From a virus, in the UHGV virus genome UHGV-0143060: DNA of 38,372 nucleotides, one strand, 5' to 3'. Positions 1-21,542 of the stretch are shown one piece after another. The notes beneath the pieces are model-generated. The model was not told the DNA's origin, made no database searches, and worked only from the letters and a program-made list of their open reading frames with translations. How positions within the stretch are numbered: position 1 is the stretch's first letter; the number at the start of each line of letters is the position of its first letter. Both the position numbers and the translations under genes were made by a program.

Positions 1-1128
1 CCATTTGTAAGCGTGGATTTTGTACCTCGTAATAATTGGTTCTATTTTAACATAAAAGCTAATACTAAAAAAGAAAGCCTTTTATCTTCTACTGATTTAA
101 CAACAGCTTTGTTGGCGGCTTTTACTAAAATAACAACTGTAGTTAATGAGATTAACCATTTTTGCCCATTAGATGTGTCAGTTGTTATCCCTGTTCATAA
201 TCGTGAAAAACTTATTCTTAAATGCATTAACTCACTTAATAACCAAACAATTAATAAGGATCGCTTTGAGGTTATTTTTGTCGATGATTGTTCAAGTGAC
301 AAAAGCATTACTGCTATAGAATATAATATATCACCGGATATTAACTACAGAATTATTCGCCGAGAAATTGGTTCAGGTAACGCTTCAACCCCGAGAAATG
401 AGGGGATAAAAGCAGCAAAAGGACGTTATATTTTCTTCATGGATTCCGATGACTATATTGACGAAACTCTTCTTGAGAGAGGGGTTCATATTGCTGATAA
501 AAATAATAGTGATATTGTTTACTTCAAAATTGCATCAGATGGTAATCGCGAGGTGCCTATCCGTCCATACAAGGTGAAAATTGTAGATAAGGCAGATATA
601 ACCAAGCATCACCTCTTGCGGTCGTTAACTATTTTCAAATTCTTCCGAAGAAATATGCTTAAAGAGCATAACATTCTCTTCAACCCAGCTATCACCGTAG
701 CTGAAGATAAAATATTTATGGTTCAATCTCTATCTGTAGCAAACAATATATCTATTCTTGCTGACAAAGATTATTATCATTTAACATTCCATGGTAATGG
801 TCATTTATCAAGGCAAAAATTTCCTCTTGAAGATAGACACTTCATTCTTAACTCGGTTATTAACACGATTTACTTTTGCGGAAAAACTAACGAAGAAAAG
901 GCCAAGCTTTACAATGCGTGGCTGGTGATATGCCTTGAAATGATGGAAAAGGTATGTGGTAAAGCAGGTGGCAACGAGCAAAAGAAAAGGATGTTCTTTA
1001 ACATGCTCTCAACCACTTTCAACATCCGCTCAGATTTAGTAAATCAGGATATGATTTATACCCCTCAGCGTAAGTTCATCAAACCTTTTTTACAAAATAA
1101 TTATGAAGGTTTTATAGCTGAAATTTAA
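1..1128 (+). CDS. Family 2 glycosyltransferase (cargo/moron); frame is open to the window edge so the 5' end may be incomplete
   Basis: GT2 signature VVIPVHNREKLILKCINSLNNQT...FEVIFVDDCSSDKS and DXD-like FFMDSDDYIDE; visibly AT-rich; no stop between position 1 and the GTG at 13; about 55 codons precede the GT2 core. Confidence 0.7.
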   Translation, partial: PFVSVDFVPRNNWFYFNIKANTKKESLLSSTDLTTALLAAFTKITTVVNEINHFCPLDVSVVIPVHNREKLILKCINSLNNQTINKDRFEVIFVDDCSSDKSITAIEYNISPDINYRIIRREIGSGNASTPRNEGIKAAKGRYIFFMDSDDYIDETLLERGVHIADKNNSDIVYFKIASDGNREVPIRPYKVKIVDKADITKHHLLRSLTIFKFFRRNMLKEHNILFNPAITVAEDKIFMVQSLSVANNISILADKDYYHLTFHGNGHLSRQKFPLEDRHFILNSVINTIYFCGKTNEEKAKLYNAWLVICLEMMEKVCGKAGGNEQKKRMFFNMLSTTFNIRSDLVNQDMIYTPQRKFIKPFLQNNYEGFIAEI

Positions 1129-1174: not shown

Positions 1175-3820
1175 TCAACCATTTAGTGTTAACTTTAATA
1201 ATTTTTCCAGATTATTAATCTTTGATGTGATATTGGCAATATCCTGCTCATGGTGATGATATAATGCGCTCATTGCCAGAAACATTAACTCGTCATAGCG
1301 CACTGATAATTTTCTTCCTGATTCCACAATTAACCTTACTTCACCAGTTTCATACTCTTCTTCCTCTGTGATTTCATCATACTGACCAGACTCTTCATCA
1401 ATTAAAATTTTTCTGGTCACATTTCTTGTTGCATAGACTTTCTCATACTCATCATCCCACTCTTCATAGCAAAGAACCCCATAAGAAAATGCATCAAGCC
1501 CCTCAGATTCAAAGATGGATTGTATATCTTGCGCAATTACACCGATATGCTCACGCGCTGACAAGCCTTTTTCTTTTACAGCATCCTTCATTCTGAATTT
1601 TTTTATCAGCGGGTAAATAGCCATTCCAACCCGTAGTTCTGCATCAGATAATGAAGCTTCATCCTGCTTGTAATTTCTGTCGCTGGTTACAATGGGGCTA
1701 TTATTTATATACAGGTTTCTGACAGTATTCGACTGTGTACCAATATCATAAAGATTTGAACCTGATGGTCGAAAATGACCTAATTCTGTTAATACCCATC
1801 TGTCACGCAAGCCGTCAATCTCTCCCATGGTTCCAAAGTAGAAAGCAACCGGGATATTGTCTCCGGAAGGATTACCTCTTGTGACGCATTTAATGTGTGC
1901 GCATTGCACAGCCTTACTACCTGTATCACCGGCCCATACATGAGTACCCAATACATCCCCTGTCTGCAGAGCTCCAAAATTATCAGTTGATACAACACCA
2001 GAGCGAGACTTATACATTATTGCTCTTGGTCCTTCTGCGGTGTCTGACTGATGCCGGGAAACCCATGAGTTGCTCATCCCTTCCGTGCCGTTTGAAGCTA
2101 ACTGCATTCCACCAGTAATTCCGCCATCAAGAAACAATATAGGGTTATCCCGGTTAGTTTGAATACCCTTTCTTGTTGGCCAAACTGTCCAGTGAAAAGT
2201 ATCATTGTATTCCCTTACTCCATATTTGAACTCCGGGGAGCCAGAACTATGAAGACCAGTATTACTGGATACAGAACGGCTTGCTTTGCTTTGCACTACC
2301 GAACCAGACCTGCCTATATCAAACAGATATACATTTTTCCCGTTCTCAGCAACTCCTTTATATGTGCATATTCCCAGCGTTAAAACATACCCACTCTCCG
2401 TTCTAATTACTGTTAGGGACTCAGGCTCTTTATAAACAGGAGTTCCTGTACTGTCAGATTTTGCTTCATCATCACCAACAGTTGAAATATCTACTCGCTC
2501 AATAAACCTGCCTGTTAAGTCAAATACGTAAATATAATTAGTCATGCCAACATACGTATGTGACTCAAGTATGTAAATGTATGCCCCATCGCAAGCAATT
2601 GATTGGGTAAATGCTTCTTGTGATGGTTTTTGATAGCTAAACTCAACTAAATAATCATCACTATAATCAGTTTTATGAGATCTGTTATTCCACATGCTGA
2701 CTATGTCGAAAACACGAACCGTGCAGGTAATTCCATCCGATGAAATTTTCTTGGCAAGTAGATAGTTTTCACAACTTGATACAGTTGGAGTAGAGCTTGC
2801 GCTCATTCCATCATAGGGGAACAACTTCCAGGTGATAAAACCTTCAGATACCCCGTTGGTTGTCCCTGTGTAACTCAATATATTTTCCATCGAAATACAT
2901 TGATTGGCGGCATCGGTTCCATAAGGCTTCGATGTCCACAGCACGACAGTACCATCAGGATTATGATGCAATCCAAGCCCCTGATGCCCAAGTTCAGTAG
3001 AACGGGTTCTGTCGTATCTTCCTAGTTCACCAGAATTCGTCACGTCAAAGGCATTAATGCAATAACCGTATGCTGTGGTAGATGATAAAGTAAAAATCTT
3101 GTCGTTAATTTCATCATAACAACACCCCTGAATGACCGCATATAAACCACCCGCACCTTCAGTTCTGCGCAACGTGTGTCTGGTGTTATATACTTTTGGC
3201 ATTCCGGAAAATATCAATGGCTCTCTTTTATCTCTTAATTTAAGATCACCAATCGCAATTCGTTTACTGCCATCACGAATAAAAGAACCATTTATATAGC
3301 TATTTTCAATAAAACTTTTAGTAACAAAAAATGCTCTTCCACTTAAATCAATAACCCTATTTTTTATATCCATTTCCAACGCGACAAATGCTTCAGTATC
3401 ATCGCTAATCCCATCCCCCTTAGCTCCAAAATAAAGAGGAGACATATTTAGCATATCATTTGATAATACTTTTTGTTTAAACTGATCCGGGTCATACTTC
3501 AGCACATTAGGAAAATAGAACTGCTGTGCACCATACGCATCATAAACAGCCATAGAATGGCCTTGCACGGTAACGAATTTGGCAATCTGTCCGTTATATA
3601 CTGGATACCCTGCGGCATTGATGACGATTGGCTGTGCAACATGAACGTGAGAACCATCTTCGTTCTCTACATAAACCTGAATCTGGTTTTCAGGATTTAC
3701 CGGGTCAGTGTCAATTTTACCGATATAAATTTTGCCATTGGCTACGGCTTTAAAAGAGCGGGCCATAGTGAAGAGTTGCGAAGGCATACTCACTACAACA
3801 TTGGCTGTAATGTCTGTCAT
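1175..3820 (-). CDS. Tailspike: P22 gp9-like head-binding N-terminus, beta-helix/pectate-lyase-like receptor-degrading body, C-terminal S74-type intramolecular chaperone domain
   Basis: First ~110 aa ([34 protein letters not shown]...) match P22 gp9 as recalled; [16 protein letters not shown] motif; C-terminal SDAELR...GVIAQDIQ resembles endosialidase-type chaperone domains. Confidence 0.85.
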
Positions 3821-4891: not shown

Positions 4892-5053
4892 TTACGCGCC
4901 AATGCGCCCTTCCTTCTTAAAGCTTTCCATTACTCTCTGATAAATCTCAGAGTTAACAGACCGACCATTCTCTTCCGCCACCTTGCGTACCAAATCCAAT
5001 GCTTCTTTAGGCCACCGCAAATTGAACTGCGGCATCTTGCTCATTCCTTTCAT
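4892..5053 (-). CDS. arc: Arc repressor (53 aa)
   Basis: [53 protein letters not shown] matches P22 Arc nearly exactly; true start is internal to the tabulated ORF. Confidence 0.9.
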
Positions 5054-5067
5054 ATTCACCTCACAAT

Positions 5068-5088
5068 ATAGGTCCACCGTGGACCTAT
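5068..5088. promoter_or_regulatory. Mnt operator (perfect palindrome) in the Pant/Pmnt divergent promoter region
   Basis: ATAGGTCCACCGTGGACCTAT perfect 21-bp palindrome between arc and mnt. Confidence 0.7.
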
Positions 5089-5095
5089 TGAGAAT

Positions 5096-5116
5096 ATAGT
5101 AGAGTGCTTCTATCAT
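5096..5116. promoter_or_regulatory. Arc operator in the Pant/Pmnt region
   Basis: ATAGTAGAGTGCTTCTATCAT with symmetric TAGA/TCTA half-sites. Confidence 0.6.
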
Positions 5117-5143
5117 GTCAATACACTAACTTGGAGTGATGGC

Positions 5144-5395
5144 ATGGCTAGAGATGATCCGCACTTTAACTTCCGTATGCCTATGGAAGTAAGGGAGAAA
5201 TTAAAATTCAGGGCGGAGGCGAATGGGAGATCAATGAACTCCGAGTTGTTACAAATCGTCCAAGATGCTCTATCAAAACCATCGCCTGTGACTGGATATC
5301 GTGACGATGCAGAACGACTCGCTGATGAGCAGTCAGATCTTGTTAAGAAGATGGTGTTTGATACGCTGAAGGATTTGTACAAAAAACCCACCTGA
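5144..5395 (+). CDS. mnt: Mnt repressor (83 aa)
   Basis: MARDDPHFNFRMPMEVREKLKFRAEANGRSMNSELLQIVQDAL... matches P22 Mnt. Confidence 0.9.
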   Translation: MARDDPHFNFRMPMEVREKLKFRAEANGRSMNSELLQIVQDALSKPSPVTGYRDDAERLADEQSDLVKKMVFDTLKDLYKKPT

Positions 5396-5410
5396 CGGTG
5401 GGTTTTATTA
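5380..5410. terminator. Bidirectional rho-independent terminator (mnt on +, moron operon on -)
   Basis: ACCCACC-TGAC-GGTGGGT hairpin flanked by an A-run upstream and a T-run downstream. Confidence 0.65.
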
Positions 5411-5827
5411 GTGCTTGTATAGGTTGAACTCTCTATCAAGCCATATAACAAAAAATGTCGATCCAAGACGATAACCAACCATGGCTTTCAAATCATCAAA
5501 TCTAAAAGCCAAGAAATGATCTACGTCTTCCGTTATATGACTGGGGATACCTGCTTTAATTGCACCCCTTGCAATCTTCTCAAATCCAAGCTTATGCCTA
5601 CCTTGCTGCTTAATCTCTGCCCATGTTAGTTGACTTAATCTGTATAATTTATCAGCTAAGCCAGCTTTCTCATCTTTTTGGCATTTCGTTATGCAGTGAG
5701 AGCTTTGGATGTAACAGAATGAAAATTTCGGTTTCTTTTGATCTGAATTCCCCCCTGACTGCGGCCCTAACTTTAACTTACCTGTAGATTCAGCAGGGGG
5801 GATAATCCTTTTAGATTTTCTTGCCAT
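5408..5827 (-). CDS. Uncharacterised 139-aa protein coupled to the Panacea-domain gene; candidate toxin partner (PanT-like)
   Basis: ATG at 5827 lies 4 nt after the upstream stop; K/R-rich N-terminus, CYIQSSHCITKC cluster, C-terminus GYRLGSTFFVIWLDREFNLYKH; AT-rich. The tabulated ORF begins at 5902 and would overlap the upstream gene. Confidence 0.55.
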   Translation of the reverse strand: MARKSKRIIPPAESTGKLKLGPQSGGNSDQKKPKFSFCYIQSSHCITKCQKDEKAGLADKLYRLSQLTWAEIKQQGRHKLGFEKIARGAIKAGIPSHITEDVDHFLAFRFDDLKAMVGYRLGSTFFVIWLDREFNLYKH

Positions 5828-5831
5828 CTCG

Positions 5832-6275
5832 TTAGTTAATCCGAGTTGCAAAGTACTCTGCCATCTCCTTAGAGCTAATTTCAGAACCACCAACACCCTC
5901 AATATAGTTTGATCTCCATGGTGACTCTTCGTGTGTCATGTTCCTCAGTTTCCAAGCAGAAAATTGCCCAAAAACATCCCAGACTTCTTCTAATAGCTCT
6001 AACTGTTCTTCGCTGAATTTTTCAGCATCAAAAGACTCTGGAGAAGGGATAGCGCCATTACCATATTGTTTATAACGGCGATAAAGCTCAGGGACAACAG
6101 GGCCATGCATCCAAGCTTCCATCTTATTCTGAAAAAGAGGCTCGCCAAGCAACGCCAATGAAAAACCCTGAGCATAGTAAACAAGCTTTTGTAATTTTAA
6201 ATTAGAGATTGTGTCACCGCTATCCTCGTCACACCGCGACAGGAAGTAGTCGGCGACATCAAAACAAGTAAGCAT
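5832..6275 (-). CDS. Panacea-domain (DUF4065, SocA/PanA-like) protein, putative antitoxin
   Basis: DVADYFL...NLKLQKLVYYAQGFSLALLGEPLFQNKMEAWMHGPVVPELYRRY matches the Panacea core as recalled; GGAGG RBS 7 nt before the ATG at 6275. Confidence 0.7.
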   Translation of the reverse strand: MLTCFDVADYFLSRCDEDSGDTISNLKLQKLVYYAQGFSLALLGEPLFQNKMEAWMHGPVVPELYRRYKQYGNGAIPSPESFDAEKFSEEQLELLEEVWDVFGQFSAWKLRNMTHEESPWRSNYIEGVGGSEISSKEMAEYFATRIN

Positions 6276-6485
6276 GAACACACCTCCATCTTGATAGCCA
6301 CAGCTAAGTATCCAACTATGTCAAATGTCATTTAATACTATAACAAAGCTATCAGCAATCCTTCGGAGGCTAACTTACAACCACTTTAGCGACATGTTTA
6401 AACCATTACGTTTCACATTTACTGCATTTTCGCCGAAGTTACCTATAAGGTAATGTCACATTTCCTGCAAGTTTCATGCAATGTT

Positions 6486-6508
6486 GAAAAGTGAGCTATT
6501 CACTTTTC
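6486..6508. other. Perfect 9-bp-stem inverted repeat in the divergent intergenic region
   Basis: GAAAAGTGA-GCTAT-TCACTTTTC; no flanking T-run. Confidence 0.4.
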
Positions 6509-6649
6509 TATGACACCAAACACCAAAAATAGCACTTTTTGCTAAATCATTCGTCCAAGTTGTGGATGGTTTGTCGTTGACACGTTTTCACACACCACTC
6601 CACCAATAAAGTATCATCTGGTATCCTGCGAAAAACTAAGGAGGTTGGT

Positions 6650-6979
6650 GTGTTAGAAATAGTAGTACTCGCTCTTGGGATATCCTGTTGCGTACTATAT
6701 GCAGGGTTAGCTGCCCTCAAGAAACAGGTTAAGGAATTAGATCGCTCACATGAAATTGATACAAAAATTGCGCGATTAACTGAAGAGAATAAACACTTAA
6801 AAAATTCCATAAGGGCACTAACTGATGACAACTACAAACTGTCCCATGCATTGGCTAAGTGGGAAATAGTAAGTTATGAAAGAATGACCGACATGATTTT
6901 TTCGTCTTATATGGCTACAAAATCTCCTGAAACATCAGGAAAAGCAATAATTGCAGCCATTGAAAAGAGAATTAAATAG
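6650..6979 (+). CDS. Membrane-anchored coiled-coil protein (moron; function unknown)
   Basis: AAGGAGG RBS then GTG; hydrophobic N-terminal helix LEIVVLALGISCCVLYAGLAAL followed by a heptad-like charged region; transcribed against the late operon. Confidence 0.55.
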   Translation: MLEIVVLALGISCCVLYAGLAALKKQVKELDRSHEIDTKIARLTEENKHLKNSIRALTDDNYKLSHALAKWEIVSYERMTDMIFSSYMATKSPETSGKAIIAAIEKRIK

Positions 6980-6998
6980 CCTTCCTTGGCGTTCATTT

Positions 6999-8840
6999 CT
7001 ACTGCCTGGTAGCTTCGTTAGTTAGGAGAGGGCGAACGGCGTTAGCAGCCTGATTTAACGCTCGCTCATATGCCGGAGTTCCAGGCTTGACGTTTGCAAG
7101 GCGGAGAAGCATGTTTCTTGCTGCTTTGGACTCATACAAGCGCATCATTGCACCAAAACCAGCCTCAAGCCCCATTGATACGCCAAGGGTCGCAGTTGCG
7201 CCAATCGTCCTTATCCTGTTGGCTTGCGATTGCCCCGTCTGAGTTACTACATTTGCGGTGTCTGACCTTGCTGTTTGCTGTAGAACTTCATGAAGAGCAT
7301 CAAGCTCTTTCATGTGCTTTCCAGAAAAAATAGTGTTGTAAATTTCACCGCCTGACTGAGATTTCAGCTTATTAACTTCAGTGATGAACTTGGCTGGAGA
7401 GTCCCCGGCCTTTTCCGCTATTTTGCTGACGTAAGCTGCACGCATAGCATCTTTCCCCTTATCATCCAGTGCGCTCCAGATTCGTTTCACGTCAGATGGT
7501 TTTCTGCTTAATACAACGGTATTTATAAGTTCAGGACTGGCTTCACTGCTTGCCTTGTTGAGCTTGTTGGCAATGTTTTTATTAAGCACCTTATTATAAA
7601 CGTTTGCATAATCGGAATTTGCTTTAAGGTATTTTGCTGCGTCTGACGCACCGAGGTTTTTTGCAACTGCGTTACGAAGGTCTTTTGACATTGCATTCTC
7701 TACCATATTGGTAGCTGCTTTTGCCTGGTTGGGGAAGACCATAGCATCTCCCTGAACATTAGATCTAAATGCTGTTCTGTGCTGACGCAAGAGATCAAAC
7801 GTAACATCCAAATCAGTTGCAGGGTTTGCTAATTCTTCACGTAGGTTACGCAAGGATGTAAGCAGGCTTTGATTGGCAGACGTCCCAAGCCGTTCCTGTC
7901 TTGCGATCGCTGTATTCAGAGCATTCATGGTATTTGTGGTATCAACTGCGGCATTACCCATTTTATTGGTGACGTCATTGATAACAGCGCCAGCGGCATC
8001 CTTCCGCCCCCTTAACGTGGTGGTCAGAGATTTCACCACATCATCAGGGTTGTACTCACCAAAACGGTCAAAATAATTGCTTACCAGCTTACTACGCGTT
8101 GCATATTGCTCCGCTCGCTTTGAGCCTGTCCCGAGCAAAGCCCCCTCGGCATCCTGAGTAAGGCCGCGAGTGAAAGCATTTTTCGGCGGGATAACATCAG
8201 ATGTCATTGGTGTCACGCCCATCGATTCTGATGTGGCAATTTTCTTCGCTACTTCTGGCGCAATATCACCTTTTATAGCCGTTATTCCACGCCCTATTCC
8301 CTTTGCTGCTGCGGAAAGAACCCCCTGAGCGGCAAGGTTAACTCCGGCATTTTTTGCTGCATTTTGTGCGAAATCGCCTTTCTGATTTGCGGCCTCTGCC
8401 AGTGATCCAATAGCCATGCTTCCTGCCGTTCCAACTCCTGGAACTAAATACCCGCCAATTGTTTCTCCAGTTTGCGCATAAGGGTCTGTCGGTCGATCGA
8501 CTGGACGATAGACATCATCCAATACTTTTGGACCACCAAGCCCCTGACTGATTGCATTAATCAGACTTGCGCCACCCTGCAATACGTCAAATGGTATGTT
8601 TACCAGACCACGACCAGCCTGTTCTGCAATTTGCCCTGCACTTTGACCACCAGTGAGCCAATCGCCAGCTTGTTGCATCAATGATGGTTCTTCACGTGCT
8701 GGTTCATTGCTATCCTGGCTGACAGTTTGTTGCTGAACAGACTGTCCAGCAAAATACTCATCAATGGCAGATCCAATATCTTCCGTGCTCGTACCATCAG
8801 GGAAGGTAAATGTCTTACCGTTTGCAGTTACTTTCATCAT
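6999..8840 (-). CDS. Ejection protein, P22 gp16-like
   Basis: 613 aa in the P22 gene-16 position; stop/start overlap with upstream gene. Confidence 0.75.
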
Positions 8841-11416: not shown

Positions 11417-12117
11417 CAGTCAATCAGCCCATGTAATCTAAGTGCCGTTTCAAGCGCCAGAATACGCTGCCGCGCCTGCTGCAACCCTGTAGCGAGGGCT
11501 GCGACTTCGGATTGTGTGTACGTAGTGCCGACTGTGTATGACTGGTTAGCGTTGAATGAGCCCAAAAGAGGTGTACCTGTGGCTGCAGTCCATCCGGTAT
11601 TTCTTGCTCCAACAACCTGAATTCCATCAACTGAATATGATGTTTTTACATCCAGCGGTGACGCAAGAGACTGCGATTCGGTTACGGTTTTCGATACGTA
11701 ATCACTCTTAATGCCAGAGACATCGTTTTCTACGTCATCCAGCATTTGGTCAACAGTGACCAGATGCGCCTGAATATCGATAACCTCATCCAGCAAGTAA
11801 TCAACATCGCTACGTAGTATGACTATCTTCCCTTCGGCGGTTGTTAACCTGACCTCAAGGAGATTTATCGCTTTTGTGTTTGCGGTGATTCTTGCGTCGT
11901 GATCAGCCAGTTCGACATCCTGTTCATCGTTTTTTACCTGGGCATCGTAAGCGCCCTGACCAGCCTGATTTGCCTTCCCGGCAATTGCGCCGACATCAGC
12001 CCCCTGATTAATGACATACAACAGGTAAGACTGGCTGAATATATTGCGTGGAAGGATTGATGTATCGAGCCGCGTCGCCTGCACAATAACAGGGGTGTTG
12101 AGATTCGAATCAGCCAT
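11416..12117 (-). CDS. Tail needle, P22 gp26-like
   Basis: 233 aa; N-terminus [35 protein letters not shown] and C-terminus [18 protein letters not shown] resemble P22 gp26. Confidence 0.85.
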
Positions 12118-13535
12118 TACTCAATCCTTATCTGGCAACCAGACAGAGTGACAGGTGACTTCGTGATAACGCGCAATTTGAAGCCGACATTTTTCCTGAT
12201 GCGCCCGACTCGCTTCCACAAAACGCGTTTGTCGTAAACAAACGGTTCATTCTGCTCAAACATCTGCTCACGACCGTAATTGATGCCGTCAGTGGTAGCA
12301 GAGAGGAACAGGCGGTCAGCGTACTGCGCAACACCAGTTGACGATTCAACTTCAAGGTCAAACACTCTTGCGTTATCCGCTTTGAACAATGGAGTAAACA
12401 GCAGGTGTTCCTGTTGCTTGTCGTACTGGCTGCTGATATCGAACTGCAATTTACCGGTAACCGATTCCAGCTTATCGCCGCACGTTATCTGATTGCCTTC
12501 GTAAATGAAGTCGATAGCGCGGTACACATCGTCATACAGGCCTGTTTTCAGCACACACCATTGCGGACCATTAGCGCTTGAAGATGCGTCGTACACGAGT
12601 ACATGGCGCGGCAGGTGAATAATCAGCAACTCATGAGCATCAAACCGCAACGATTCCATCACGCCATCAGCCAGTTCATCAGCAGTGTAGGAGCGGAGGA
12701 TTTTCTCAATGCTCGCGCTGGCGATTGGTAACACCTGACCGGAGCCGATGATGTATACAGACGGCGCACCTGTTGCCGGATTGCTGATGAACGCATAAGA
12801 ATCAGCAAACGGCGTTTTGCAGTAAGTCCCGGCAATGCCTTTCTGCACCATCAGTGATGGCTGTGCGACATACAAAGCGGCACCAACGGTGGTTGCACCA
12901 GTCAGGGAGAAATATTCAATCGTCGATGAACCAAAGCAGACGATGAAGTCTCGCCATGTCCCGATACCGATGATGCCGTCAGGCTGAGACTCGGCACGAT
13001 ATTGTGCGCTGTAACGGTCAGGATGCGATTCGTCTTCAAGGTCAGTGATGAACCATGAATCAGTACCATCTTTTGACCACGCATAACGCCCACGTAAGCG
13101 CGTAATGTCACGAACCGAACCTAACTCATACTGCGTGAATCCGCTGTCTGTAGGCCAGTTTGAGACGGTTTTAACCGTGCCATCATAACGATACTCGACC
13201 AGTTGACCATTAACGCCTACAGCCTGAGATGTCCGACCATGCGCCATTGATACGCGACCACTTCCGGCGACGTCACCGACTTCGCTTTCGCCTTTGTAGA
13301 GCTTGCCACCACACACGCGATAGACAGCATTCTGCGCCATGTTGTACTCGACGCCTCGAGATACACCATTCACATCAGAACGTTTGGCAATGCCCGGGAA
13401 TGAGCGAAGATATCCGCTGCTGTTAAGGATTTCTTTGGGTGTAGCCAACATATTCACTGGCAGATAGTCGATATAGTCGGCGTTTCGGAAGTCTTTGCCG
13501 ACACCTTTCATGAGCGGAAGTTGCTGAATCGGCAT
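12117..13535 (-). CDS. Tail hub protein, P22 gp10-like
   Basis: 472 aa, same length and position as P22 gp10. Confidence 0.8.
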
Positions 13536-13544
13536 TTATTCACC

Positions 13545-14006
13545 TCACGTACTCGGATCATCTTTCTCGATGTAAAACCGATTCCACGTAAACGCGCTTT
13601 TGTTACCACTACCTCGAGGCATGTCATTTCGTCGCTCAAGTGGTGGTATTTTGGTTAAAGCGATACAGATTGTCTGATATGCACTGTCAGCAGCGGTCAG
13701 GAGAGCATCCGACGGCTGAATGACGTTATCCATGCACACTTGCACAGCGAGTTTCAAAGCGACGCCATCATTTGCCCATGCAGGGATACCTGAATCATCG
13801 TCCGGTAACGGCATGATGCCGTTTTCTGTATCAGCAAACTGATACCCAAGCTCGATACCTTTAGCCTGCCATGCTGCCATCATGTCTTCGAGGTCATTAA
13901 TGGCATCTTCAATTGCCTGAGGGTCAGCATCTGTCAACGTGGCATTGGAATACAGCCCGGCTTTTCGTAAAGCCTTTAGAACGAGATCACCCTTCGTTTT
14001 CGCCAT
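13545..14006 (-). CDS. Head-to-tail adaptor, P22 gp4-like
   Basis: 153 aa immediately downstream of the coat module. Confidence 0.7.
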   Translation of the reverse strand: MAKTKGDLVLKALRKAGLYSNATLTDADPQAIEDAINDLEDMMAAWQAKGIELGYQFADTENGIMPLPDDDSGIPAWANDGVALKLAVQVCMDNVIQPSDALLTAADSAYQTICIALTKIPPLERRNDMPRGSGNKSAFTWNRFYIEKDDPST

Positions 14007-21074: not shown

Positions 21075-21542
21075 TCATCGAAGGCATTGCGTCCTGATGT
21101 ATTCCTGAAGCGTTCTCAGTGCTGTTTGGTCGCGGATAATTCCGTCCCGGATACCGAGAACGTTTCGTCCAGCAACTGGAGAGAGTTCGACGGTGGCATC
21201 ATTGCCCATGCCGGAGGCGCTGGAGGTTTCGGCTGAGGATGGCACAGAGCATTTTCCTTTGACGAGCACCCGACCACCATTATCAAGCTTGCGCCGAAGA
21301 GCATCATTTTCAGCTTTCGCATCAGCTAACTCCTTCGTGTATTTAGCATCGAGTGCATCAGCAGCACGCTGGCGCTGCTGCATGTCAGTAATGGTGGCAG
21401 TCGCCTGCTTCAGCTCACTGACTTTTTTATCGCGCTGCTCTTTGTAGGCGATGGCGTTATCACGGTAATGATTAACAGCCCATGACAGGCAGACGATGAT
21501 GAAGATAATCAGAGCGGAGATAATCGCGGTTATTCTGCTCAT
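21075..21542 (-). CDS. Rz: Rz i-spanin
   Basis: [34 protein letters not shown]... close to lambda Rz. Confidence 0.9.
21116..21322 (-). CDS. Rz1: Rz1 o-spanin lipoprotein (embedded in Rz, +1 frame)
   Basis: [10 protein letters not shown] lipobox followed by Pro-rich [11 protein letters not shown]; the start may be an internal Met. Confidence 0.75.

Follow-up and report, generated by a model that had tools for sequence, protein, structure and literature searches.

Gene organization at the locus

The virus genome UHGV-0143060, a stretch of 38,372 nucleotides (nt) that was analysed at its full length and is called the window below, is a P22-like prophage with its late operon on the minus strand. 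At positions 6650-6979 of the plus strand it contains an open reading frame (ORF) for a protein of 109 amino acids (aa), here named ORF109, which is identical to the RefSeq protein WP_000890120.1 and belongs to the family phrog_8100. ORF109 is a real accessory gene, and it occupies the slot that in phage P22 holds the exclusion gene sieA. From its position, expression signals, and membrane anchor we tentatively propose that the product protects the lysogenic host against incoming phages.

The gene order in the window is the tailspike gene (1175-3820), ant, arc, mnt (+), a Panacea/SocA-type gene pair (5408-6281), and, beyond ORF109, genes 16, 20, and 7. ORF109 starts with GTG at 6650 and ends with the stop codon TAG at 6977-6979; a Shine-Dalgarno sequence, AAGGAGG (6638-6644, +), is separated from the start codon by 5 nt. 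The start and the strong ribosome-binding site agree with the original prediction made from the letters of this locus, which had also placed the gene on the strand opposite to the late genes 16, 20, and 7 (minus strand) and in convergent orientation with gene 16. The latter (6999-8840, -; phrog_770, E 6e-279) encodes a 613-aa ejection or DNA-transfer protein with a P22-class C-terminus, and its stop codon (6999-7001) lies 19 nt from that of ORF109. The spacer between the converging stops (6980-6998) forms the right cassette junction, the megablast match to SE1-type phages ending at query position 712, or window position 6993. On the other side, ORF109 is separated by 368 bp, close to the 370 bp estimated before, from the Panacea-domain gene. 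The chromosome of E. coli GPEC859 matches the segment 6282-6998 with 100% identity and has ORF109 annotated as the hypothetical protein WP_000890120.1. The GC content of ORF109 is 36.7% vs 47.6% for gene 16, which fits an accessory (moron) gene.

Conservation and distribution of the ORF109 family

ORF109 had been described as belonging to no recognizable family. This holds for families of named function, since no model of Pfam, NCBIfam, or PADLOC was matched except by sub-threshold coiled-coil similarities, but the protein does belong to a small catalogued family, phrog_8100 (of unknown function), and is present in RefSeq as a 'hypothetical protein'. The match to phrog_8100 covers its full length (E 1.4e-69, residues 2-109 on positions 2-109 of the 109-position profile); in the structure search, comparison of an AlphaFold2 (AF2) model with BFVD and the PDB by Foldseek returned zero matches, a single long helix being uninformative in such a search. 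Relatives of ORF109 form 14 clusters at 90% identity in a collection of 5.8 billion proteins, and when 1.84 billion representatives were searched exhaustively with a profile, no more than five reached E<=1e-10. The family is thus small, though real. One distant full-length member is P0017 (111 aa, E 2.9e-16), whereas the other family hits are short or chimeric gene calls. A scan of GTDB genomes yielded 83 pattern hits, none of which was confirmed.

Relatives of ORF109 adjoin gene 16 in E. coli, Salmonella, Klebsiella quasipneumoniae, and metagenome contigs. Gene 16 is the constant neighbour of the family, and the upstream genes vary: the Panacea pair, a 139-aa gene, a P63C gene, hkcC, or directly the tailspike gene. 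In two of the compared loci (L009 and L007) the ORF109-family gene stands alone between the tailspike gene and gene 16 and constitutes the entire 'ant moron'; in L004 and L007 a C-terminal extension produces an overlap of 29-38 nt with the 3' end of gene 16.

The coding nature of ORF109 was assessed by codon comparison of six loci, namely the window, SE1, a K. quasipneumoniae prophage, and three metagenome or run-assembly contigs. Between distant members the ratio of non-synonymous to synonymous substitution rates (dN/dS) is 0.10-0.22 for the whole gene and 0.15-0.32 for the first 69 codons; in the last 40 codons it falls to 0.03-0.12, with a saturated dS of about 1-2. For the pair of the window and SE1, the first 69 codons show a dN/dS of 1.06 (18 non-synonymous and 5 synonymous changes), and because of this the two genes have a higher nucleotide identity (91.7%) than amino-acid identity (82.6%).

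The excess of nucleotide over protein identity would also be expected of a spurious ORF whose conservation derives from a DNA or RNA element, and the homologue is without annotation in the records of SE1 (NC_011802) and ST160 (NC_014900). A candidate element is a terminator-like hairpin with UUUUGU at 6923-6942 on the minus strand (z = -3.9), located 57 nt past the gene 16 stop codon and inside the codons of a conserved SPETSG peptide. However, this hairpin is lost in L004, L009, and L010 with the SPETSG peptide kept, which argues that it results from quasi-palindromic codons and does not account for the conservation; it is probably incidental. Moreover, the C-terminal residues are nearly invariant at saturated synonymous sites, contradicting a non-coding origin of the conservation, and homologues with as little as 50% identity retain the reading frame, the length, and the start context. 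We give hardly any credit to a spurious ORF.

A cassette slot shared with sieA

In P22, gene 16 (11484-13313, +) is followed after 22 nt by the converging sieA gene (13336-13830, -). ORF109 resembles sieA, whose product belongs to phrog_7745, in its place between genes 16 and 9, in converging on gene 16, and in the gap of about 20 nt. Similarly, the two genes have in common a near-identical stretch of about 33 nt before the start, the sequence AAGGAGG, and a GTG start codon, and both encode small membrane proteins of the P22-like 'ant moron'. The argument from position, by which this place in P22-like phages often holds exclusion or lysogenic-conversion genes, is thus borne out in slot, orientation, and upstream stretch. 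We hold the description of the anatomy of ORF109 and of its slot with high confidence.

The shared stretch, including the start codon, spans 6619-6652 of the plus strand (TGGTATCCTGCGAAAAACTAAGGAGGTTGGTGTG) in the window and 13828-13861 in P22 (L008). The common part of about 33 nt, TGGTATCCTGC..AAAACTAAGGAGGTTGGTGTG, precedes P22 sieA, the hkcB genes of HK620, epsilon34, and L015, the SE1 homologue of ORF109, and the gene for an Sf6-gp38-like exported protein in phage Emek, as well as ORF109 in the window, and the DNA beyond it varies with the neighbouring gene. In SE1-type Salmonella phages, about 140 nt before the ORF109 homologue are identical to the P22 sieA upstream region. The stretch contains a TGnTAnnnT motif, AAGGAGG, and GTG, and it stands before four unrelated cassette genes (sieA, hkcB, ORF109, and the Sf6-gp38-like gene), which identifies the slot as a site where cassettes are swapped in. 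The region between genes 16 and 9 is known for rapid gene flux, and the hkcB-type genes described there are of unknown function (PMC2629481). As judged from these alignments, the stretch may serve two purposes, one as a portable expression signal and the other as a patch of homology for cassette exchange.

The same boundary is visible in database matches. From 6282 to approximately 6652 the window is 99% identical to phage Emek and 98.9% identical to phiv205-1; from 6619 to 6993 it is approximately 91% identical to SE1-type Salmonella phages that have other upstream genes. The megablast matches therefore split within the shared stretch (query positions 338-378, window 6619-6659), and ORF109 is a cassette bounded by this stretch and the end of gene 16.

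This mosaic structure bears on the proposal that ORF109 is a third component or regulator of the Panacea (SocA-like) toxin-antitoxin (TA) module, a connection implied by the original prediction, which had grouped the gene with the TA-like pair, and suggested by the 368 bp between them. ORF109 is carried by 17 of 5426 complete E. coli genomes, in all of them with at least 99% identity, but only one of the 5426 covers at least 80% of the segment 6282-6998, in which the Panacea-side DNA is joined to ORF109. In Emek, the DNA corresponding to 6282-6618 lies between a Panacea-domain homologue (orf149, the same 149 aa) and the Sf6-gp38-like gene; that is, the same Panacea-side DNA is followed, past the junction at 6619-6659, by a different slot gene. 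With one joined genome against 17 having ORF109, the gene is unrelated to the TA pair, the association in the window is accidental, and a role in the module is very improbable.

Putative expression signals

Within the shared stretch, positions 6619-6627 (+) match an extended -10-like motif, TGGTATCCT, composed of TGn and TATCCT. The pattern TGnTAnnnT, which has a chance expectation of 0.03 per 30 nt, is present in each of the nine family loci at -31 to -39 and occurs in five variants (TGGTATCCT, TGATATCCT, TGATAGAGT, TGGTAAAGT, and TGTTAAAGT). Four of the upstream regions are unlike that of the window outside the motif and nevertheless contain it, as TGATAGAGT, TGGTAAAGT, and, twice, TGTTAAAGT. 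A perfect TTGACA at 6577-6582 has no -10 element at a usable spacing. We infer from this pattern that ORF109 very probably has its own promoter, putatively at the extended -10-like motif, in which case transcription would start at about 6633-6636 and the 5' untranslated region would measure about 15 nt.

A single copy of P22 sieA with only 85 bp of its upstream DNA is enough for exclusion, and the gene is transcribed in lysogens (PMC10883804). By analogy with these data on sieA, the likeness of the two upstream regions makes expression of ORF109 in the prophage state likely.

Predicted architecture of the ORF109 protein

The original prediction described one N-terminal hydrophobic helix and a charged, coiled-coil-like remainder, and both parts could be refined. 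The sole hydrophobic segment lies near the N-terminus (Kyte-Doolittle mean 2.4 over residues 4-22) and corresponds to a predicted transmembrane helix of residues 4-23 (6659-6718, +). In all 13 family members examined there are no lysines or arginines before this segment and 2-5 of them within 15 residues after it. By the positive-inside rule this distribution predicts an N-out/C-in topology with a periplasmic stub of 2-3 residues and a cytoplasmic body. The rest of the protein is charged and predicted to form one long helix with a heptad pattern; in the AF2 model (mean predicted local distance difference test score, pLDDT, 85) a helix of residues 2-90 is followed by a loop and a second helix, 97-108.

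Topology and coiled-coil prediction, the first check suggested for this protein, thus gave one membrane segment followed by a five-heptad leucine zipper, residues 36-71 (6755-6862, +), which is delineated by the heptads themselves, by sub-threshold bZIP_1/GCN4 matches, and by AF2 pLDDT values of 95-97. Its d positions are I36, L43, L50, L57, L64, and W71, and its a positions I40, N47, I54, N61, and L68. Residues L43, L50, I54, L57, and L64 are invariant, and I40 and the pair of a-position asparagines are nearly so. The zipper resembles those of GCN4 and other bZIP proteins in its five heptads, leucines at d, and conserved asparagine at two a positions. Asparagine at position a in GCN4-type zippers favours parallel dimers, and dimerization of the ORF109 zipper can be inferred. 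The resemblance is confined to the structural motif. As a bZIP protein ORF109 was rejected, with 15.8 bits for bZIP_1 vs a cut-off of 27.6 and no DNA-binding basic region, the basic stretch being the juxtamembrane flank; a profile search of the PDB found only GCN4/Fos/Jun zippers at E >= 0.016 (GCN4 E 0.016), below the thresholds.

The C-terminal module, residues 70-109 (6857-6976, +), consists of a helix, the SPETSG loop, and a second helix, as delimited by the alignment, dN/dS, and the AF2 loop at 91-96. Its sequence, KWEIxSYExMTDMIFxSYMATKSPETSGxxIIAAIExR, is almost invariant, with 28 invariant columns in an alignment of 12 sequences that includes members with as little as 50% overall identity to the query. 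This conservation suggests that the module is likely to be the functional core of the protein. It was not found in any other architecture in the profile search of 1.84 billion representatives.

A transmembrane helix followed by a coiled coil is also the arrangement of Rz-like inner-membrane spanins, and weak PHROG hits to such spanins were obtained (E 0.015 and 0.064). A spanin or other lysis function is, however, scarcely credible. The charge distribution of ORF109 predicts the opposite topology, neither the strand nor the location of the gene suits a lysis function, and no embedded or adjacent plus-strand ORF of at least 30 aa is available for an o-spanin. The prophage has its own Rz gene at 21075-21542 (phrog_13, E 1.7e-72), together with an endolysin, in the lysis cassette. 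A clear match to a lysis protein, which together with the lack of a phenotype had been named in advance as speaking against the predicted function, was not obtained beyond these two weak hits.

HkcB and the association with gp16 classes

A look-alike of ORF109 is HkcB of HK620 (phrog_5962; epsilon34 gp14, CUS-3 hkcB), a protein of unknown function for which our literature search found no functional discussion. HkcB shares with ORF109 the slot, the upstream stretch, a length of 107-109 aa, and an N-terminal transmembrane helix without preceding lysines or arginines that continues into a long helix (2-103 in an AF2 model of HkcB built on database homologues). In both families the N-terminal two-thirds are variable and the C-terminal part, about 45 aa in HkcB, is strongly conserved. 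The conserved C-terminal sequences themselves are different, and homology of the two proteins was rejected: the hhalign probability is 5% and concerns the coiled coil only, and the match to phrog_5962 (E 0.011) is limited to residues 34-72.

The two families also differ in the gene 16 that they adjoin. The hkcB gene abuts gene 16 without a gap, always with an HK620/CUS-3-class C-terminus (...GNEEFQRLARAGIVASLSGMAQE), in all eight independent loci (L003 3532-3861, which is HK620, and L020, L021, L015, L017, L018, L019, and L010), and this association holds where the HkcB proteins are just 50% identical. In contrast, the gp16 C-terminus is of the P22 class in the 7/7 loci where an ORF109-family gene adjoins gene 16. 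The P22-class C-terminus is found with sieA or the gp38-like gene as well. The association may be plain linkage, and it suggests a class-specific relation to gp16.

In L010 (92-424/448-771) and L011 (86-418/442-765), a gene 16 of the HK620 class is preceded by an ORF109-like gene and an hkcB-like gene, which form a tandem on one strand. ORF109 and hkcB families are thus not simple alternatives. The second gene of the tandem has its own ribosome-binding site and no extended -10-like motif, which suggests a two-gene operon.

Invariable adjacency to gene 16 and the class association (7/7 for ORF109, 8/8 for hkcB) would also be consistent with an accessory function in the phage cycle, such as handling of the phage's own gp16 in assembly or injection, or self-protection on induction, instead of protection of the lysogen; sieA itself is up-regulated on induction (PMC10883804). 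On the other hand, ORF109 runs antisense to the late operon; it is missing from most P22-like phages, among them P22, which are fully viable without it; and the presence of P22-class gp16 next to sieA or the gp38-like gene means that linkage can explain the association. We consider a phage-cycle role improbable.

Comparison with SieA and possible function

The only characterized occupant of the slot, P22 SieA, is a proven prophage-expressed inner-membrane exclusion protein, and mutations that escape it map to the C-terminal parts of gp16 and gp20 (PMC10883804). Members of the SieA family are defined by three (type A) or four predicted transmembrane helices and a cytoplasmic FxRYPxEAxxFNK motif (PMC10883804). 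ORF109 differs in having 109 aa and one transmembrane helix, compared with 162-164 aa and three helices; it lacks the FxRYPxEAxxFNK motif, and its bulk is a soluble zipper with a helix-loop-helix. The ORF109 protein is not SieA and, if it has a protective role, would be a functional analogue and not a homologue. No sieA, sieB, hkcB, hkcC, or gp38-like gene was detected in the window.

Its slot and membrane anchor, the expression stretch that it shares, the lack of any other sie gene in the prophage, and the precedent of SieA lead us to assign to ORF109, tentatively, the function of a host-protection factor of the superinfection-exclusion type, expressed from the prophage. According to this model, ORF109 would be a moron with its own promoter in a cassette slot converging on gene 16, expressed from a short portable stretch made up of a TG-extended -10, AAGGAGG, and GTG. 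The product would be bitopic, crossing the inner membrane with a single transmembrane helix and exposing a stub of 3 residues in the periplasm; on the cytoplasmic side, a five-heptad zipper of the parallel-dimer type would position the helix-loop-helix module of 40 residues at a distance of about 7-10 nm from the membrane. It would act at the cytoplasmic face of the inner membrane, at the end of the gp16/gp20/gp7 DNA-delivery conduit of incoming P22-like phages.

Several observations weigh against this assignment. The SieA family phrog_7745 is not among the ORF109 hits at E<=0.1, and tblastn with P22 SieA found nothing in the window, types B and C not having been compared directly. A two-hexamer scan detected no classical sigma-70 promoter upstream of ORF109, and the window lacks the putative PsieA that the P22 record places at -31 to -61, farther upstream than the shared 33 nt. 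The dN/dS near 1 in the N-terminal 69 codons of the window and SE1 genes could reflect relaxed constraint instead of an arms race. Among the models of PADLOC-DB 2.0 the sole match was LmuB (E 0.0014, 15.6 bits), inside the coiled coil, and the literature search found no paper mentioning WP_000890120. The gene is rare, as seen from the 17 of 5426 E. coli genomes, and in the induced-prophage assemblies ST-29 (CP051288), ST-87 (CP051278), and SW-70 (CP051272) the homologue aligns in two or three pieces or is truncated; these apparently frameshifted copies may be pseudogenes or sequencing errors. Finally, the cytoplasmic location predicted for the conserved module is unusual among blockers of DNA entry. 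HK97 gp15, phi80/N15 Cor, and TP-J34 Ltp, like ORF109, are small envelope-associated proteins of independently expressed prophage genes located among virion genes, but they act from the periplasmic side or at the outer membrane (PMC10883804), whereas the ORF109 module is predicted to be cytoplasmic; none of the three has similarity to ORF109 by PHROG, Pfam, or PADLOC.

The predicted cytoplasmic body leads to another explanation, in which ORF109 is a moron with a different host-directed role. As a membrane-tethered dimer it might, for example, bind a protein of the host cytoplasm or of the divisome/elongasome, or alter envelope physiology or lysogen fitness. An N-out/C-in anchor with a cytoplasmic coiled coil resembles small membrane-tethered scaffold proteins of bacteria, weak coiled-coil-level matches to DivIC and ZapB were obtained (E 0.004-0.02, below the cut-offs), and the low GC content and own upstream signals of ORF109 are moron features; moreover, the ant-moron genes are clearly non-identical in function (PMC2629481). 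However, all of these family matches are sub-threshold and restricted to the zipper, the gene is found strictly at the gene 16 end of P22-like prophages and never elsewhere, and the one characterized slot occupant is an exclusion protein. We regard such a role as possible, though somewhat less likely than exclusion.

The exclusion hypothesis can be extended to the slot as a whole. The gene 16 slot would then be a dedicated site for exclusion cassettes, equipped with a portable promoter, ribosome-binding site, and start codon, and ORF109 and HkcB would represent a second class of occupants with a new structure: membrane-tethered, cytoplasm-facing zipper dimers whose C-terminal modules recognize gp16 of the P22 class and of the HK620/CUS-3 class, respectively, and stop or control DNA delivery in its final step at the inner face of the membrane. 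This extension is speculative, and we rate its chances as low.

Neighbouring genes and other elements of the window

The Panacea/SocA-type module (5408-6281, -) comprises two genes, an upstream antitoxin-like gene of 149 aa with the Panacea domain (5832-6281, -; PF13274, E 1.9e-24) and a downstream partner of family phrog_8366, which has no Pfam hit and a weak PADLOC match to NsnC (E 9.5e-6). Their longest ORFs overlap by 71 nt, and the PGAP calls are shorter and non-overlapping. The module takes the place of P22 hkcC and orf59a.

The intergenic DNA of the module (337 bp, 6282-6618), defined by its 99% and 98.9% identity to Emek and phiv205-1, includes the hairpin noted in the original prediction at 6486-6508, whose perfect 9-bp stem was confirmed (GAAAAGTGA / TCACTTTTC, loop GCTAT; as RNA, dG -10.7 kcal/mol and z = -3.0 vs shuffled sequences). 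The hairpin, with about 205 nt between it and the Panacea-domain gene downstream, is 99% conserved with that side in Emek and phiv205-1, so that it travels with Panacea. A canonical intrinsic terminator was rejected for lack of a T-run on either strand; the hairpin could serve the TA module as an operator or at the level of RNA. A search of 5000-7200 with Rfam found nothing in the intergenic region or in ORF109. At the end of mnt (5359-5413) it gave a sub-threshold match to the Salmonella small RNA STnc420 (26 bits vs a gathering score of 70), which is probably the mnt terminator hairpin. The 6923-6942 hairpin within ORF109 might nevertheless attenuate late transcription that reads through in the direction of the tailspike gene.

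Beyond the tailspike gene, an ORF at 13-1128 (+) matches phrog_22088 and GtrB-like O-antigen conversion families (E 5e-32). Its product is likely a serotype-converting glycosyltransferase encoded at the prophage end.

Implications

ORF109 was already present in databases as a hypothetical protein, and sieA has been characterized. What is new here is the evidence of selection on ORF109, its architecture, the upstream stretch in common with sieA, its independence from the TA pair, and the association of two zipper families with gp16 classes. If ORF109 has no exclusion phenotype, it is merely another uncharacterized moron of a rare family. Through the shared stretch of 33 nt, unrelated morons are swappable at one site where expression signals are already present, and P22 SieA is the only occupant of this site with a function shown. 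Should the class-specific interpretation of the zipper proteins be true, prophages with the tandem of ORF109 and hkcB would exclude phages of both gp16 classes, and HkcB could cover the HK620-type phages, which SieA excludes only partially. ORF109 and HkcB, tracking distinct classes of the gp16 C-terminus, offer two cheap and ready-made probes of the delivery of DNA across the inner membrane through the gp7/gp20/gp16 conduit.

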